DNA of 45,913 bases from Escherichia coli (GTDB lineage Bacteria; Pseudomonadota; Gammaproteobacteria; Enterobacterales; Enterobacteriaceae): assembly GCF_003334785.1 (NCBI RefSeq), contig NZ_QOWV01000023.1. The stretch is one strand, 5' to 3'. Under the pieces are notes generated by a model, which made no database searches, was not told where the DNA came from, and saw only the letters and a list, made by a program, of their open reading frames with translations. The position numbers were made by a program, and so were the translations under genes. Positions 1,281 through 45,913 of this stretch are shown here, piece after piece (within the stretch, counting starts at the first letter, position 1; every line of letters begins with the position of its first letter).

Positions 1281-2570
1281 CAGGGAAAGATCACGTAACG
1301 CTACTTTTTTGTACTAAATAATTCGCATTTTATGTTTAAAAATTGAGATATTCCTTATTACCTAAAGCTGTTTTTCATAGCTTATACATGATCAAATACT
1401 CCTTACATAAATAAGGTGAACAAATGGAACTTAAAAAATTGATGGAACATATTTCTATTATTCCCGATTACAGATAAGCCTGGAAAGTAGAGCATAAATT
1501 GTCAGGCATCCTACTATTGACTATTTTTGCCGTTATTTCTGGTGCAGAAAGTTGGGAAGATATAGAGGATTTCGGGGAAACACATCTCGATTTCTTGAAG
1601 CAATATGGTGATTTTGAAAATGGTATTCCTGTTCACGATACTATTGCCAGAGTTGTATCCTGTATCAGTCCTGCAAAATTTCACGAGTGCTTTATTAACT
1701 GGATGCGTGATTGCCATTCATCAAATGATAAAGACGTCATTGCAATTGATGGAAAAACGCTCCGGCACTCTTATGACAAGAGTCGCCGCAGGGGAGCGAT
1801 TCATGTCATTAGTGCGTTCTCAACAATGCACAGTCTGGTCATCGGGCAGATCAAGACGGATAAGAAATCCAATGAGATCACAGCTATCCCTGAACTTCTT
1901 AACATGCTGGATATTAAAGGAAAAATCATCACAACTGATGCGATGGGTTGCCAGAAAGATATTGCAGAGAAGATACAAAAACAGGGAGGTGATTATTTAT
2001 TCGCTGTAAAAGGAAACCAGGGGCGGCTTAATAAAGCCTTTGAGGAAAAATTTCCGCTGAAAGAATTAAATAATCCAGAGCATGACAGTTACGCAATGAG
2101 TGAAAAGAGTCACGGCAGAGAAGAAATCCGTCTTCATATTGTTTGCGATGTCCCTGATGAACTTATTGATTTCACGTTTGAATGGAAAGGACTGAAGAAA
2201 TTATGCGTGGCAGTCTCCTTTCGGTCAATAATAGCAGAACAAAAGAAAGAGCCAGAAATGACGGTCAGATATTATATCAGTTCTGCTGATTTAACCGCAG
2301 AAAAGTTCGCCACAGCAATCCGAAACCACTGGCACGTGGAGAATAAGCTGCACTGGCGTCTGGACGTGGTAATGAATGAAGACGACTGCAAAATAAGAAG
2401 AGGAAACGCCGCAGAATTATTTTCAGGGATACGGCACATCGCTATTAATATTTTAACGAATGATAAGGTATTCAAGGCAGGGTTAAGACGTAAGATGCGA
2501 AAAGCAGCCATGGATAGAAACTATCTCGCGTCAGTCCTTGCGGGGAGCGGGCTTTCGTAATCTTTCCCTG
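1281..2570 (+). mobile_element. H-repeat (ISAs1-family-like) element, copy 1, ~1290 bp with imperfect 15-bp terminal inverted repeats
   Basis: Left end CAGGGAAAGATCACG (1281-1295); right end CGTAATCTTTCCCTG (2556-2570), whose reverse complement is CAGGGAAAGATTACG. Contains one transposase-like ORF. Confidence 0.7.
1424..2560 (+). pseudogene. ybfL: H-repeat-associated transposase-like gene inactivated by an in-frame TAA at 1475-1477; otherwise full length (~378 codons)
   Basis: ATG at 1424 ([17 protein letters not shown]) runs into TAA where copy 2 has CAA; the frame then stays open to 2560 (ORF track 1499..2560). Symbol ybfQ/ybfL from memory, assignment between the two uncertain. Confidence 0.75.
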
Positions 2571-3524
2571 CTTTTTGTACTAAATAATTCGCATTTTATG
2601 TTTAAAAATTGAGATATTCCTTATTACCTGAAGCTGTTTTTTATTGCTTATACATGATCAAATACTTCTTACATAATTAAGGAGAACAAAATGGAACTTA
2701 AAAAATTGATGGAACATATTTCTATTATCCCCGATTACAGACAAGCCTGGAAAGTGGAACATAAATTATCGGATATTCTACTGTTGACTATTTGTGCCGT
2801 TATTTCTGGTGCAGAAGGCTGGGAAGATATAGAGGATTTTGGGGAAACACATCCCGATTTTTTGAAGCAATATGGTGATTTTGAAAATGGTATTCCTGTT
2901 CACGATACCATTGCCAGAGTTGTATCCTGTATCTGTCCTGCGAAATTTCATGAGAGCTTTATTAACTGGATGCTTGACTACCATTCTTCAGATGATAAAG
3001 ACGTCATCGCAATTGATGGAAAAATACACCGGCATTCTTATGACAAGAGTCGCCGTAAGGGAGCGATTCATGTCATTAGTGCGTTCTCAACAATGCACAG
3101 TCTGGTCATCGGACAGATCAAGACGGATAAGAAATCCAATGAGATCACAGCTATCCCTGAACTTCTTAACATGCTGGATATTAAAGGAAAAATCATCACA
3201 ACTGATGCGATGGGTTGCCAGAAAGATATTGCAGAGAAGATACAAAAACAGGGAGGTGATTATTTATTCGCTGTAAAAGGAAACCAGGGGCGGCTAAATA
3301 AAGCCTTCGAGGAAAAATTTCCGCTGAAAGAATTAAATAATCCCAAGCATGACAGTTACGCAATTAGTGAAAAGAGTCACGGCAGAGAAGAAACCCGTCT
3401 TCATATTGTTTGCGATGTCCCTGATGAGCTTATTGATTTCACGTTTGAATAGAAAGGGCAGCTATGGTTAGAAACTACCTGACGTCAGTCCTTGCGGGGA
3501 GCAGGCTTTCGTAAATTTGTCCTG
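2571..3524 (+). mobile_element. H-repeat element, copy 2, head-to-tail with copy 1; lacks the left inverted repeat and ~313 bp of internal 3' sequence
   Basis: Homology to copy 1 begins at 2571 (CTTTTTGTACTAAATAATTCGC, equivalent to copy 1 ~1305) and ends in a degenerate right repeat CGTAAATTTGTCCTG (3510-3524). Confidence 0.65.
2691..3452 (+). CDS. ybfD: H-repeat-associated protein, C-terminally truncated transposase-like ORF (253 aa)
   Basis: Near-identical to copy 1 through ...DFTFE, then TAG at 3450-3452 where copy 1 has TGG, followed by a ~313-bp deletion relative to copy 1. Confidence 0.8.
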
Positions 3525-5524: not shown

Positions 5525-5551
5525 CAGACGCGTCAGGCAATCGAGCCCAGA

Positions 5552-5660
5552 TGCCGGATGCGGCGTGAACGCCTTATCCAGCCTACAAATTTGTGCAAAT
5601 TCAATAAATTGCAGGAAATACGTAGGCCTGATAAGACGCGTCAAGCGTCGCATCAGGCAT
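5552..5660. repeat. REP/BIME repetitive extragenic palindromes between convergent phr and dtpD
   Basis: GCCGGATGCGGCGTGAACGCCTTATCCAGCCTACA and GTAGGCCTGATAAGACGCGTCAAGCGTCGCATCAGGCA are canonical E. coli REP units. Confidence 0.75.
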
Positions 5661-5673
5661 CGGTGCTGGCCTA

Positions 5674-10533: not shown

Positions 10534-11325
10534 ATGCCTGAAGGCCCGGAGATCCGCCGTGCAGCGGATAACCTGGAGGCGGCGATCAAAGGCAAACCAC
10601 TAACTGATGTCTGGTTTGCCTTCCCGCAGTTAAAACCTTATCAATCACAACTTATCGGTCAACACGTTACCCATGTGGAAACGCGTGGTAAGGCGTTGTT
10701 AACTCATTTTTCCAACGACTTAACGCTCTACAGCCATAATCAGCTTTACGGCGTCTGGCGCGTGGTTGATACCGGCGAAGAGCCGCAGACCACGCGAGTA
10801 TTGCGGGTAAAACTGCAAACGGCTGACAAAACCATTCTGCTTTATAGCGCCTCGGATATTGAGATGTTGACCCCGGAACAACTGACCACGCATCCGTTTT
10901 TACAACGCGTTGGTCCCGATGTGCTGGATCCGAATCTGACGCCGGAGGTGGTGAAAGAACGATTATTGTCGCCGCGCTTTCGTAACTGTCAGTTTGCTGG
11001 ATTACTGCTCGATCAGGCGTTTCTGGCTGGGCTTGGCAATTATTTGCGGGTGGAGATCCTCTGGCAGGTTGGGTTGACTGGAAATCATAAAGCGAAAGAT
11101 CTCAATGCGGCGCAACTGGATGCACTCGCACACGCGTTACTGGAGATTCCTCGATTTTCCTACGCTACGCGGGGGCAGGTGGATGAGAATAAGCATCATG
11201 GGGCGCTGTTTCGCTTTAAGGTTTTTCATCGAGATGGCGAACCGTGCGAACGTTGTGGCAGCATCATTGAGAAAACCACGCTGTCATCTCGCCCGTTTTA
11301 CTGGTGCCCTGGCTGCCAGCACTAG
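10534..11325 (+). CDS. nei: Endonuclease VIII (Fpg/Nei family DNA glycosylase/AP lyase)
   Basis: 263-aa ORF starting MPEGPEIRR (N-terminal catalytic Pro after Met) and ending in a zinc-finger CxxC...CxxC motif. Confidence 0.95.
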
Positions 11326-12368
11326 GCCGACCGCTTCGGCGCATAGGTTGAAATAAACCGCGCAATGGCAGGCCCTGTCAGCAAAATACTGAACAGGCGT
11401 AGGGTTTGCATCGCCATAATGAGCGCCATATCGGCATTGCTCCCTGCGGCGATGACCGCCACGGTATCAAGCCCGCCGGGGCTGGTGGCGAGGTAGGCAG
11501 TCATAAAATCAATGTGCATAAACCGGGTCAGCCCCCACGCCATACCCGCACAAATAGCCAGCAGAGCAAAAATCGACAGCAGGATTTGCGGTAGCGGGCG
11601 TAGTGCCCGCAGTAAGATTTGTTTATCGAAACCAAGACCAATCCGCCAGCCAATTGCCATATACGCCATCGCCAGCAGCCATTCCGGTAGTTCGATGGTG
11701 ATGAGCTGACCAGACTGGAGCACTGCGCCCGCCAGCATCGGGATGAGCATCGTGCCGGAAGGAAGACGCAGCAGGCATCCCACTGTACCGGCAACGACCG
11801 CGAGCAAAATAGTAAGCAGGAGATTAATGCTCACTGGCGGGAACCAGACGATATGCTGGTTAACCGCTTCAGCGTTATCGCCCAGCATCATGCGGGTGAC
11901 CAGAACAGCGGCCCCCGCGACGAACAGCACTCGCAGATATTGCATAAACGCCACCAGGCGAATATCTGCGCCGTAATCTTGCGCCATAGCGACCATTGCC
12001 GCCGCGCCGCCAGGAGAGGAGCCCCAGGCACCGGTATTTCCAGGCAATGAGCTATAGCGCACCAATAACCAACCCACAATGGCGCTGGAAAGCAGCGTTA
12101 CCAGTAAAATTGCAAGCACGATCGGCCAGTTGACGGCCAGGGTGGTGAGAATCGAACCAGTGAGGTTTTGCGCAATCATGCAGCCAAGAATGGCCTGGGC
12201 GGCGAGAAAAGCAGAGCGGGGAAGTTGCAGAGTAATTCCGCGCATACTAAAGATGATCCCGGCGATCATCGGCCCAAGTAATAGCGCCGCCGGGAGATGT
12301 ACCGCGAGGAAACCAATAGAAAGGAGAAGTGATAGCACACATAACATTCCCCACTGCAAAACTGGCAT
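11322..12368 (-). CDS. abrB: AbrB-family inner-membrane protein (putative regulator/transporter)
   Basis: Six-frame ORF extends to 12446, but the ATG at 12368-12366 has GGAG 8 nt upstream and gives a 348-aa product; highly hydrophobic. Confidence 0.8.
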
Positions 12369-23005: not shown

Positions 23006-23126
23006 CCGTAGGCCTGATAAGACGCGCAAGCGTCGCATCAGGCAACCAGTGCCGGATGCGGCGTGAACGCCTTATCCGGCCTACAAGTCATTACCCGTAG
23101 GCCTGATAAGCGCAGCGCATCAGGCG
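23006..23126. repeat. REP/BIME cluster (three REP units) between sdhB and sucA
   Basis: CCGTAGGCCTGATAAGACGCGCAAGCGTCGCATCAGGCA, GCCGGATGCGGCGTGAACGCCTTATCCGGCCTACA and CCGTAGGCCTGATAAGCGCAGCGCATCAGGCG. Confidence 0.75.
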
Positions 23127-27360: not shown

Positions 27361-27625
27361 GTAGACCGGATAAGGCATTATCGCCTTCTCCGGCAATTGA
27401 AGCCTGATGCGACGCTGACGCGTCTTATCAGGCCTACGGGACCACCAATGTAGGTCGGATAAGGCGCTAGCGCCGCATCCGACAAGCGATGCCTGATGTG
27501 ACGGTTAACGTGTCTTATCAGGCCTACGGGGACCACCAATGTAGGTCGGATAAGGCGCAAGCGCCGCATCCGACAAGCGATGCCTGATGTGACGTTTAAC
27601 GTGTCTTATCAGGCCTACGGGTGAC
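27361..27625. repeat. Tandem BIME array of REP pairs: ~90-bp unit, ~2.4 copies
   Basis: Units at 27402-27490, 27491-27581 and partial 27582-27621, each GCCTGATG(C/T)GACG...GTCTTATCAGGCCTACGGG...CCACCAATGTAGGTCGGATAAGGCGC.AGCGCCGCATCCGACAAGCGAT. Confidence 0.8.
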
Positions 27626-28870: not shown

Positions 28871-29739
28871 TGTCCATTTTAATCGATAAAAACACCAAGG
28901 TTATCTGCCAGGGCTTTACCGGTAGCCAGGGGACTTTCCACTCAGAACAGGCCATTGCATACGGCACTAAAATGGTTGGCGGCGTAACCCCAGGTAAAGG
29001 CGGCACCACCCACCTCGGCCTGCCGGTGTTCAACACCGTGCGTGAAGCCGTTGCTGCCACTGGCGCTACCGCTTCTGTTATCTACGTACCAGCACCGTTC
29101 TGCAAAGACTCCATTCTGGAAGCCATCGACGCAGGCATCAAACTGATTATCACCATCACTGAAGGCATCCCGACGCTGGATATGCTGACCGTGAAAGTGA
29201 AGCTGGATGAAGCAGGCGTTCGTATGATCGGCCCGAACTGCCCAGGCGTTATCACTCCGGGTGAATGCAAAATCGGTATCCAGCCTGGTCACATTCACAA
29301 ACCGGGTAAAGTGGGTATCGTTTCCCGTTCCGGTACACTGACCTATGAAGCGGTTAAACAGACCACGGATTACGGTTTCGGTCAGTCGACCTGTGTCGGT
29401 ATCGGCGGTGACCCGATCCCGGGCTCTAACTTTATCGACATTCTCGAAATGTTCGAAAAAGATCCGCAGACCGAAGCGATCGTGATGATCGGTGAGATCG
29501 GCGGTAGCGCTGAAGAAGAAGCAGCTGCGTACATCAAAGAGCACGTTACCAAGCCAGTTGTGGGTTACATCGCTGGTGTGACTGCGCCGAAAGGCAAACG
29601 TATGGGCCACGCGGGTGCCATCATTGCCGGTGGGAAAGGGACTGCGGATGAGAAATTCGCTGCTCTGGAAGCCGCAGGCGTGAAAACCGTTCGCAGCCTG
29701 GCGGATATCGGTGAAGCACTGAAAACTGTTCTGAAATAA
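28870..29739 (+). CDS. sucD: Succinyl-CoA synthetase alpha subunit
   Basis: 289-aa ORF ([28 protein letters not shown]...). Confidence 0.97.
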
Positions 29740-29838
29740 ATATCTGTAATAAGAAATAGCCCTCGCCGCTTCCCTCTACAGGAATGGCGAAGGGCTGTCG
29801 GTTTCGACATGGTTGGCCATCGTATGATGGCCTTTTTT
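29740..29838 (+). ncRNA. sdhX: 3'-UTR-derived small RNA of the sdh-suc operon (SdhX/RybD-like); boundaries approximate
   Basis: ~100 nt between sucD stop and terminator containing stem GCCCTCGCC/GGCGAAGGGC and a terminal hairpin; identity from remembered literature on a 3'-UTR sRNA downstream of sucD. Confidence 0.5.
29815..29838 (+). terminator. Intrinsic terminator of the sdh-suc operon
   Basis: Hairpin GGCCATC/GATGGCC (29815-29821 with 29826-29832) followed by TTTTTT (29833-29838); sits directly against the convergent mngR stop (29843). Confidence 0.7.
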
Positions 29839-30565: not shown

Positions 30566-30673
30566 TTTTAGTATCTCATTAATACGAATTTAACCATTAT
30601 GCCCGATAAATTCATCCTGTAAATAATACAAATACAACACAAATAATTTCAATCAAGTGAAATTGATCACATA

Positions 30674-32650
30674 ATGGTATTGTTTTATCGGGCACACTGG
30701 CGCGACTATAAAAACGATCAAGTGAGGATCATGATGAATCTGACGACTCTGACCCACCGCGATGCGTTGTGTCTGAATGCGCGCTTTACCAGCCGTGAAG
30801 AGGCCATCCACGCGTTGACTCAACGTCTTGCTGCTCTGGGGAAAATTTCCAGTACTGAGCAATTTCTGGAAGAAGTGTATCGCCGTGAAAGCCTTGGCCC
30901 GACCGCCTTAGGTGAAGGGTTGGCTGTGCCGCATGGCAAAACTGCTGCGGTAAAAGAAGCGGCGTTTGCGGTCGCCACACTCAGCGAGCCGCTTCAGTGG
31001 GAAGGCGTTGATGGCCCGGAAGCAGTTGATTTAGTGGTGCTGCTGGCGATTCCCCCCAATGAAGCGGGTACTACGCATATGCAACTGCTGACAGCGCTGA
31101 CCACGCGCCTTGCGGATGATGAGATTCGGGCGCGTATACAGTCGGCGACGACGCCTGATGAGTTGCTCTCGGCGCTGGATGACAAGGGAGGCACGCAACC
31201 TTCTGCCTCTTTTTCCAACGCGCCAACTATCGTCTGCGTAACGGCCTGTCCGGCGGGTATTGCTCACACCTATATGGCTGCGGAATATCTGGAAAAAGCC
31301 GGACGCAAACTCGGCGTAAATGTTTACGTTGAAAAACAAGGCGCTAACGGCATTGAAGGGCGTTTAACGGCGGATCAACTCAATAGTGCAACCGCCTGTA
31401 TTTTTGCGGCTGAAGTCGCCATCAAGGAGAGTGAGCGTTTTAATGGCATTCCCGCGCTTTCAGTGCCTGTTGCCGAGCCGATTCGCCATGCAGAAGCGTT
31501 GATCCAACAAGCGCTTACCCTCAAGCGTAGCGATGAGACGCGTACCGTACAGCAAGATACGCAACCGGTGAAAAGTGTCAAAACGGAGCTGAAACAGGCA
31601 CTGTTGAGCGGAATCTCTTTTGCCGTACCGTTGATTGTCGCGGGGGGCACGGTGCTGGCGGTCGCGGTATTACTGTCGCAAATCTTCGGGCTACAAGATC
31701 TGTTTAATGAAGAAAACTCCTGGCTGTGGATGTACCGCAAGCTGGGCGGCGGGCTGCTCGGAATTTTGATGGTACCGGTGCTCGCGGCCTATACCGCCTA
31801 TTCTCTGGCAGATAAACCGGCGTTAGCGCCAGGCTTTGCGGCTGGACTTGCCGCCAACATGATCGGCTCCGGGTTTCTCGGCGCGGTCGTTGGCGGATTG
31901 ATAGCCGGTTACTTGATGCGCTGGGTGAAAAATCACTTGCGTCTTAGCAGTAAATTCAATGGATTCCTGACTTTTTATCTCTACCCGGTGCTCGGTACGT
32001 TGGGAGCGGGCAGTCTGATGCTGTTTGTGGTGGGGGAACCTGTCGCCTGGATCAATAACTCGCTTACCGCCTGGCTGAACGGTCTGTCAGGAAGTAACGC
32101 GCTGTTGCTGGGTGCCATTCTCGGTTTTATGTGTTCCTTTGACCTTGGAGGGCCAGTGAATAAAGCCGCTTATGCATTCTGCCTGGGCGCAATGGCGAAC
32201 GGCGTTTACGGCCCGTATGCCATTTTCGCATCCGTCAAAATGGTTTCGGCATTTACCGTAACCGCTTCCACGATGCTCGCACCGCGCCTGTTTAAAGAGT
32301 TTGAAATTGAGACCGGGAAATCCACCTGGCTGTTAGGGCTGGCAGGTATTACCGAAGGGGCGATCCCGATGGCGATTGAAGATCCGCTGCGGGTTATTGG
32401 TTCGTTTGTGCTGGGCTCTATGGTAACGGGCGCTATTGTCGGTGCGATGAATATCGGCCTTTCGACACCCGGTGCCGGCATTTTCTCGCTCTTTTTACTT
32501 CATGATAATGGCGCGGGCGGTGTTATGGCGGCAATTGGCTGGTTTGGCGCGGCATTGGTGGGGGCTGCAATCTCGACTGCAATTCTCCTGATGTGGCGGC
32601 GTCACGCGGTTAAGCATGGCAACTATCTGACTGATGGCGTAATGCCATAA
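30674..32650 (+). CDS. mngA: PTS 2-O-alpha-mannosyl-D-glycerate-specific EIIABC component
   Basis: 658-aa ORF as in the track; EIIA-like N-terminal region then EIIB/EIIC membrane domain. An alternative start at 30734 has the better ribosome-binding site (see findings). Confidence 0.88.
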
Positions 32651-43732: not shown

Positions 43733-44278
<546 letters not shown>

Positions 44279-44287
44279 GAGAATTGC

Positions 44288-45079
44288 ATGAGCAGTAACT
44301 TCAGACATCAACTATTGAGTCTGTCGTTACTGGTTGGTATAGCGGCCCCCTGGGCCGCTTTTGCTCAGGCACCAATCAGTAGTGTCGGCTCAGGCTCGGT
44401 CGAAGACCGCGTCACTCAACTTGAGCGTATTTCTAATGCTCACAGCCAGCTTTTAACCCAACTCCAGCAACAACTTTCTGATAATCAATCCGATATTGAT
44501 TCCCTGCGTGGTCAGATTCAGGAAAATCAGTATCAACTGAATCAGGTCGTGGAGCGGCAAAAGCAGATCCTGTTGCAGATCGACAGCCTCAGCAGCGGTG
44601 GTGCAGCGGCGCAATCAACCAGCGGCGATCAAAGCGGTGCGGCGGCATCAACGACGCCGACAGCTGATGCTGGTACTGCGAATGCTGGCGCGCCGGTGAA
44701 AAGCGGTAATGCAAACACGGATTACAATGCAGCTATTGCGCTGGTGCAGGATAAATCCCGCCAGGATGACGCAATGGTGGCATTTCAGAATTTCATCAAA
44801 AATTACCCTGATTCAACTTACCTGCCAAACGCCAATTATTGGCTGGGTCAGTTAAACTACAACAAGGGTAAAAAAGATGATGCGGCGTACTATTTTGCTT
44901 CGGTAGTGAAAAACTATCCGAAGTCACCAAAGGCTGCAGATGCGATGTTTAAAGTCGGCGTCATCATGCAGGACAAAGGTGACACCGCAAAAGCGAAAGC
45001 CGTATACCAGCAGGTTATCAGTAAATACCCTGGTACTGATGGCGCTAAACAGGCACAAAAACGTCTGAACGCGATGTAA
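44288..45079 (+). CDS. cpoB: Cell-division coordinator CpoB (TPR-repeat periplasmic protein)
   Basis: 263-aa ORF with signal peptide, coiled-coil and C-terminal TPR-like repeats; formerly ybgF. Confidence 0.93.
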   Translation: MSSNFRHQLLSLSLLVGIAAPWAAFAQAPISSVGSGSVEDRVTQLERISNAHSQLLTQLQQQLSDNQSDIDSLRGQIQENQYQLNQVVERQKQILLQIDSLSSGGAAAQSTSGDQSGAAASTTPTADAGTANAGAPVKSGNANTDYNAAIALVQDKSRQDDAMVAFQNFIKNYPDSTYLPNANYWLGQLNYNKGKKDDAAYYFASVVKNYPKSPKAADAMFKVGVIMQDKGDTAKAKAVYQQVISKYPGTDGAKQAQKRLNAM

Positions 45080-45243: not shown

Positions 45244-45319
45244 GGGTCGTTAGCTCAGTTGGTAGAGCAGTTGACTTTTAATCAATTGGTCGCAGGTTCG
45301 AATCCTGCACGACCCACCA
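45244..45319 (+). tRNA. lysT: tRNA-Lys (anticodon UUU)
   Basis: 76-nt GGGTCGTTAGCTCAGTTGGTAGAGCAGTTGACTTTTAATCAATTGGTCGCAGGTTCGAATCCTGCACGACCCACCA, CCA encoded. Confidence 0.95.
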
Positions 45320-45454
45320 ATCGCTAAGGTGGAAGCGGTAGTAAAACGTGAAGGATAACGTTGCATGAGCAACGGCCCGAAGGGCGAGACGAAGTCGAGT
45401 CATCCTGCACGACCCACCACTAACATAGTTAGTTGTAGTATCCAGCGTAGTATC

Positions 45455-45530
45455 GGGTGATTAGCTCAGCTGGGAGAGCACCTCCCTTACAAGGAGGGGG
45501 TCGGCGGTTCGATCCCGTCATCACCCACCA
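45455..45530 (+). tRNA. valT: tRNA-Val (anticodon UAC)
   Basis: 76-nt GGGTGATTAGCTCAGCTGGGAGAGCACCTCCCTTACAAGGAGGGGGTCGGCGGTTCGATCCCGTCATCACCCACCA. Confidence 0.95.
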
Positions 45531-45533
45531 CTC

Positions 45534-45609
45534 GGGTCGTTAGCTCAGTTGGTAGAGCAGTTGACTTTTAATCAATTGGTCGCAGGTTCGAATCCTGCAC
45601 GACCCACCA
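45534..45609 (+). tRNA. lysW: tRNA-Lys (anticodon UUU)
   Basis: Identical 76-nt tRNA-Lys sequence, 3 nt after valT. Confidence 0.95.
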
Positions 45610-45758
45610 GTTTTAACATCGAAGACAGATGTTAAGCGTGTAGGATAACGTTGCGTCAGCAACGGCCCGTAGGGCGAGCGAAGCGAGTCATCCTGCACGA
45701 CCCACCACTAATGACGGTGGGTTCGGTGGAAGTAGTTTGTAGTATCCAGCGCAGTATC

Positions 45759-45834
45759 GGGTGATTAGCTCAGCTGGGAGAGCACCTCCCTTACAAGGAG
45801 GGGGTCGGCGGTTCGATCCCGTCATCACCCACCA
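45759..45834 (+). tRNA. valZ: tRNA-Val (anticodon UAC)
   Basis: Identical 76-nt tRNA-Val sequence. Confidence 0.95.
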
Positions 45835-45837
45835 CTC

Positions 45838-45913
45838 GGGTCGTTAGCTCAGTTGGTAGAGCAGTTGACTTTTAATCAATTGGTCGCAGGTTCGAATCCT
45901 GCACGACCCACCA
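45838..45913 (+). tRNA. lysY: tRNA-Lys (anticodon UUU); ends exactly at the window edge
   Basis: Identical 76-nt tRNA-Lys sequence ending in CCA at 45911-45913. Confidence 0.9.

Follow-up and report, generated by a model that had tools for sequence, protein, structure and literature searches.

A minimal four-nucleotide tail-to-tail overlap between nei and abrB in Escherichia coli

The nei and abrB genes and their shared stop tetramer

The DNA analysed here, referred to as the window, is a stretch of 45,913 nt from Escherichia coli (assembly GCF_003334785.1, contig NZ_QOWV01000023.1), in which nei and abrB are encoded on opposite strands with facing 3' ends (Table 1). The window is E. coli chromosome. 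The 2.2-kb stretch around the nei/abrB junction was matched at a coverage of at least 80% in 5,422 of 5,426 complete E. coli genomes and is 100% identical to strain FORC 064. nei closes the same-strand run ybgI-pxpB-pxpC-pxpA-nei, and the title of Gifford and Wallace (2000) presents it as the terminal gene of an operon, transcribed as such. On the other strand, the abrB ORF extends to an upstream TTG, with the annotated ATG start at 12368. In profile searches, its product matched PF05145 (residues 29–339 of 348, E = 2e-97) and TIGR03082, the latter named "membrane protein AbrB duplication". RefSeq names the product "AbrB family transcriptional regulator", and the K-12 annotation calls it a "putative regulator"; what the family models depict, however, is a duplicated membrane protein. 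Judged by these models, the regulator name is probably misleading. The family-model matches gave no evident functional link between the Nei and AbrB products.

Table 1. Features at and around the nei/abrB junction, in window coordinates
Feature	Position	Strand	Remarks
nei (endonuclease VIII) CDS, 263 aa	10534..11325	+	ORF, RefSeq, equivalog model; stop TAG
Two C-rich, G-poor RNA stretches, antisense to the 3' part of nei	10982..11261	-	Composition only
Next in-frame abrB stop, TAA (complement of TTA)	11298..11300	-	8 codons past the normal stop
Shared tetramer CTAG	11322..11325	both	Tail-to-tail overlap of 4 nt; tetramer varies in related genomes
abrB CDS, 348 aa, predicted membrane protein of the AbrB-duplication family	11322..12368	-	ORF, RefSeq, PF05145, TIGR03082
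Short hairpin GCCGA-CCGCT-TCGGC, 5 bp	11326..11340	.	Centroid fold; within abrB codons
Next in-frame nei stop, TAG	11344..11346	+	7 codons past the normal stop
C-rich, G-poor RNA stretch, antisense to abrB	11606..11685	+	C/G 2.15; surrounds the Rho peak at 11635

Elsewhere in the window, at about 1424–3449 and beside an RHS-repeat gene at the window start, ybfD and the gene next to it, both of them transposase genes of the ISAs1 family, carry pseudogene annotations, as does mngA (about 30643–32559), which has an internal stop in this strain. Rfam matches at 23011–23081 (-), 27453–27524 (+), 27544–27615 (+), 44179–44317 (+) and 45244–45910 (+) comprise copies of naRNA4 (CssrE), the CpoB/ybgF thermometer and, at the window end, a tRNA array with RtT elements, where RefSeq annotates Lys and Val tRNAs.

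Read directly from the sequence, window bases 11320–11326 are c-a-c-t-a-g-g, and the CTAG within them is self-complementary, being its own reverse complement. The abrB ORF has its low end at 11322, and the reverse complement of CTA at 11322–11324 is its TAG stop; the central TA of the tetramer is common to the stop codons of both genes. The earlier note had described the nei stop (TAG, 11323–11325) and the abrB stop (complement of 11322–11324) as overlapping, and sequence and ORF ends agree on this. That the overlap is an annotation artefact, with one of the frames ending earlier or being no gene, is scarcely credible: although the last 9 AbrB residues lie beyond the Pfam domain and the last 2–4 differ between species, the alignment of Nei to the NF007763 equivalog covers positions 1–263 of 263 (E = 7e-151, profile search), 80 related loci, like FORC 064, K-12 and the window, share the conserved zinc-finger end CPxCQx of Nei and an identical stop position, the AbrB C-terminus is conserved in 20 related loci, in which it falls at the same residue or at most 5 later whether abrB overlaps nei or not, and neither ORF holds an earlier in-frame stop.

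Each end of the tetramer is a third codon position in one of the genes (nei His CAC, abrB Ala GCC), and a transition there is synonymous in that gene and exchanges TAG and TAA in the partner. The four tetramers CTAG, CTAA, TTAG and TTAA therefore form a neutral network, within which, judged from the codons, they can interchange by drift with both stops kept and at no cost to either protein.

Enumeration showed that convergent overlaps of stop codons by 1–3 nt are impossible, that 4 nt is the minimum, and that a 4-nt convergent overlap is permitted by CTAA, CTAG, TTAA and TTAG only; Lillo and Krakauer (2007, Biol Direct, PMC2174442) give the same minimum and name the same four tetramers. For E. 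coli they report 58 overlaps between convergent genes; across 58 prokaryotes, the figures in their Tables 2 and 3 leave 1890 - 1218 = 672 convergent overlaps shorter than 5 nt, and since 4 nt is the minimum, these 672 of 1,890 are exactly 4 nt long. nei and abrB belong to exactly this YTAR class, as opposite-strand coding genes with facing 3' ends whose stops lie on one shared YTAR tetramer and whose frames are both genuine, and their overlap is an instance of a common class that involves no improbable event. The class has been known since 2007, and the nei/abrB case is itself already annotated and published: RefSeq gives the same 4-bp overlap in FORC 064, and in K-12 MG1655 nei is placed at 745935..746726 (+) and abrB at 746723..747769 (-), overlapping by 4 bp. 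Nothing essential sets the pair apart from the class, although two of its properties are mildly unusual. It uses CTAG, the rarest tetramer in E. coli, which is strongly depleted in the window (6 observed vs about 34 expected under a second-order Markov model), and both of its stops are TAG, the rarest stop among the 37 CDS of the window (4 of 37, including nei and abrB).

Variation of the junction in E. coli and related genomes

Variation within the species was assessed across 5,426 E. coli genomes with 47-mer queries so placed that any seed must include the tetramer. CTAG was found at the junction in at least 4171 genomes (3,361 with K-12-type and 810 with O157-type flanks), CTAA in 263, TTAA in 1 and TTAG in 0, these counts leaving out about 990 genomes in which flanking SNPs break the 28-nt seeds. 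In three of three divergent strains whose junction was read directly, the tetramer was CTAG.

The sole TTAA genome among the 5,426 (L087, NZ_CP025268.1, 745751–745797; L088) is a K-12 MG1655 derivative from Boston. Its odhB stop is TAA vs TAG in the window, its AbrB protein accession is unchanged, and the nei change from CAC to CAT is synonymous. By these stop codons it looks like a genome-wide TAG-to-TAA recoded strain, in which the nei and abrB stops were recoded together.

With Nei as the query, one locus was retrieved from each of 80 species-representative genomes. The 4-nt overlap was present in the window and in 13 genomes, which belong to Escherichia species, to several Citrobacter and to a MAG that carries the label Raoultella; across these 14 loci the tetramer was CTAG in 6 (the window included), CTAA in 3, TTAG in 3 and TTAA in 2. 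Conservation of CTAG itself is ruled out by the occurrence of four tetramers across species and by the CTAA genomes within E. coli. Four loci carry a spacer between nei and abrB, of +6 nt in S. enterica arizonae, +25 nt in C. sedlakii, +54 nt in S. enterica diarizonae and +75 nt in C. amalonaticus S646, and in three Citrobacter a further gene separates nei from abrB, with a gap of about 940 nt. In the other 59 loci, no abrB match was found downstream of nei (flank up to 2.5 kb, shorter in a few loci), and abrB does not adjoin nei in most of the Enterobacteriaceae sampled.

The overlap did not arise by lengthening of the AbrB C-terminus, because across gaps of +6 to +75 nt the protein stops at the same residue or no more than 5 residues further on; since AbrB ends alike with or without it, the overlap amounts to a missing spacer. 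The spacers of Salmonella and other Citrobacter, at like AbrB length, further indicate that the exact geometry drifts, and the persistence of the overlap in Escherichia and part of Citrobacter leaves room for weak selection in its favour. The 54-nt spacer of S. enterica subsp. diarizonae (L010, 3293–3346) contains, as judged by eye, the REP-like sequence GCCTGGTGGCGCTACGCTTATCGGGCCTAC; if this spacer is truly REP-like, loss of the overlap could come about by insertion of a small mobile repeat.

Transcription termination at and beyond the junction

The terminator scan found no intrinsic-terminator-like site at the junction or close to it, predicted folding of the surrounding 151 nt did not exceed that of shuffles (z = -0.43 on the + strand and -0.60 on the - strand), and no Rfam family was matched there. 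The hairpin listed in Table 1 carries a T-run on neither strand, was not among the sites of the terminator scan and is not terminator-like. The Rfam search thus gave no known structured RNA at the junction, and an intrinsic or bidirectional terminator is ruled out by the scan, the folding and the comparison of overlap loci given below. The earlier statement that the two genes leave each other no intergenic room for a terminator is accordingly borne out, with an intergenic space of zero. Lack of a consensus terminator is not peculiar to this pair: the other two of the three convergent junctions in the window, phrB/dtpD (spacer 5525–5673, 149 nt) and sucD/mngR (spacer 29649–29751, 103 nt), likewise gave no consensus terminator in a simple scan. 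A match to Rfam ES036 (CssrF) lies at 5587–5629, within the phrB/dtpD spacer.

Among the related loci, a hairpin with a T-run starting no more than 80 nt past the nei stop, in many cases with an A-run beside it, was present in 27 of the 59 without a downstream abrB match vs 0 of the 14 with the overlap (Fisher p = 0.0012), which indicates that an intrinsic terminator closes the nei transcription unit in many relatives and not in Escherichia. In Enterobacter, Lelliottia, Klebsiella and relatives that lack an adjoining abrB, an A-run, a hairpin and a T-run follow nei within a few bases, as in AAAACGGTAACCCGAAGGTTACCGTTTT (just after position 3292 in L035, L038, L041, L044, L054, L062, L067 and others), and elements of this type look like bidirectional intrinsic terminators. 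Such terminators occupy the same architectural position as the nei/abrB junction, and the nei of many relatives has one, whereas E. coli is without such an element at or near the junction.

According to Lillo and Krakauer (2007), the terminator of such an overlap must sit within the coding sequence of the partner. For the nei strand, supplementary file 2 of Adams et al. (2021, eLife, PMC7815308) lists a Rho termination region at K-12 747036 (+), labelled "antisense abrB", with upstream/downstream reads of 68/30 untreated and 75/95 with bicyclomycin (Rho score 2.87, p = 7.6e-5), a weak and coarse call with low reads, 800-nt comparison windows and a resolution of hundreds of nucleotides. Over nei and abrB, the alignment of K-12 with the window shows one mismatch and no indel, so this position corresponds to window 11635, antisense within abrB and 310 nt past the nei stop. 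It is surrounded by the most C-rich, G-poor stretch of the nei-strand read-through RNA (offsets 281–360). For the abrB strand, Adams et al. list neither a Rho region nor a curated 3' end, and their curated Term-seq 3' ends, from three conditions, include none between 746500 and 747699. The - strand stretches in Table 1, at offsets 61–180 and 201–340 past the abrB stop (C/G about 2.0–2.1), are candidate Rho loading regions for abrB read-through, and the composition on both strands is suggestive as a mark of Rho regions. The nei strand thus resembles the other regions reported by Adams et al. in being bicyclomycin-sensitive within C-rich, G-poor RNA, and differs from them in the weak, low-coverage call; the abrB strand is without a counterpart.

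A full-length mRNA must carry its own stop codon, and that codon sits inside the partner CDS, so some read-in is unavoidable, and 3' ends lying short of the partner are impossible for functional mRNAs. The earlier note had held that the transcripts of each gene must run into the coding region of the other and that antisense interference might result. Read-in stands for the nei strand, where the published Rho region lies 310 nt inside abrB, and for both strands at the level of the 4 shared nucleotides. Any interference, for its part, would probably be minor, since the sole available read count, from the nei strand (68 reads per 800 nt), is low.

Interpretation and significance

The junction is best read, with a probability of about 0.7, as an ordinary minimal YTAR tail-to-tail overlap that arose by tight neutral packing, in which Rho ends untranslated read-through and the effect is small, with no sign of a special function. 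On this reading, nei, at the end of the ybgI-pxpBCA-nei run, and the unrelated abrB would have been packed without a spacer. With neither spacer nor intrinsic terminator between them, polymerase leaving either gene would enter the partner and make RNA that is untranslated, and Rho would halt it within a few hundred nucleotides in either direction, its action on the abrB strand being presumed from base composition. The antisense overlap of the transcripts would then be a by-product of close packing, would serve no regulatory purpose of its own and would probably affect expression little.

nei-abrB is among the 165 convergent excludons of MG1655 in Table 1 of the ExcludonFinder study (Sanmartin et al., 2025, NAR, PMC12288877), each called in at least 50% of the 58 RNA-seq samples, and the authors view excludons as potentially regulatory. 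A functional convergent excludon, in which the nei operon and abrB would each shut out expression of the other, either by transcriptional interference or by RNase III cutting the RNA duplex, would also suit the retention of the overlap across Escherichia and part of Citrobacter and the demonstrable entry of + strand transcription into abrB. However, the ExcludonFinder rule defines an excludon by overlap of coverage-defined transcript boundaries and is met trivially whenever two overlapping CDS are both expressed, so the listing is no evidence of regulation. Validated excludons show reciprocal expression or RNase III processing; for nei-abrB, nothing specific to the pair was found in the literature on either of these or on dsRNA, and the ExcludonFinder paper names the pair in its table only. 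Further points against such a device are the low nei-strand read count, the absence of the geometry from Salmonella, C. sedlakii and C. amalonaticus S646, the position of abrB away from nei in most Enterobacteriaceae sampled, and the lack of an evident functional link between the two products, and it is considered unlikely. Its fullest form is most improbable: induction of ybgI-pxpBCA-nei, an operon with DNA-damage and 5-oxoproline functions, would switch off AbrB and vice versa, with Rho setting the length of the overlap and the TA locking the two ends.

Transcription could instead be ended at the junction itself by programmed head-on collisions of polymerases, positioned by a hairpin, so that the site would do the work of a bidirectional terminator without containing one. 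Wang et al. (bioRxiv 2022) describe head-on and trailing collisions that terminate convergent gene pairs and are positioned by a stem-loop in the nascent RNA, and a 5-bp hairpin is indeed present immediately past the nei stop, at 11326–11340. That hairpin is nevertheless short, is without flanking A- or T-runs and was not seen by the terminator scan, and the folding of the surrounding sequence is no better than that of shuffles; with low reads on the nei strand, simultaneous convergent polymerases should be rare, and the sole mapped termination signal is Rho-dependent and lies some 310 nt away. Collision-based termination at this site is accordingly held to be distinctly improbable.

Very-short-patch repair acts on T:G mismatches in the context CTAGG, which it turns into CCAGG, and the junction at 11322–11326 reads CTAGG. 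A single T-to-C change at 11323 would make a Dcm site and abolish both stops together, with the back-up stops of Table 1 limiting the extension to 7 aa for Nei and 8 aa for AbrB.

The practical relevance of the overlap is confined to genome engineering: recoding either TAG alters the partner gene, synonymously only, and deleting either gene through its stop also removes the stop of the partner. The wider significance of the ordinary packing favoured here is small: nei and abrB offer a clean textbook case in which two genes share their stop codons at no coding cost, and such pairs rely on Rho and not on an intrinsic terminator.
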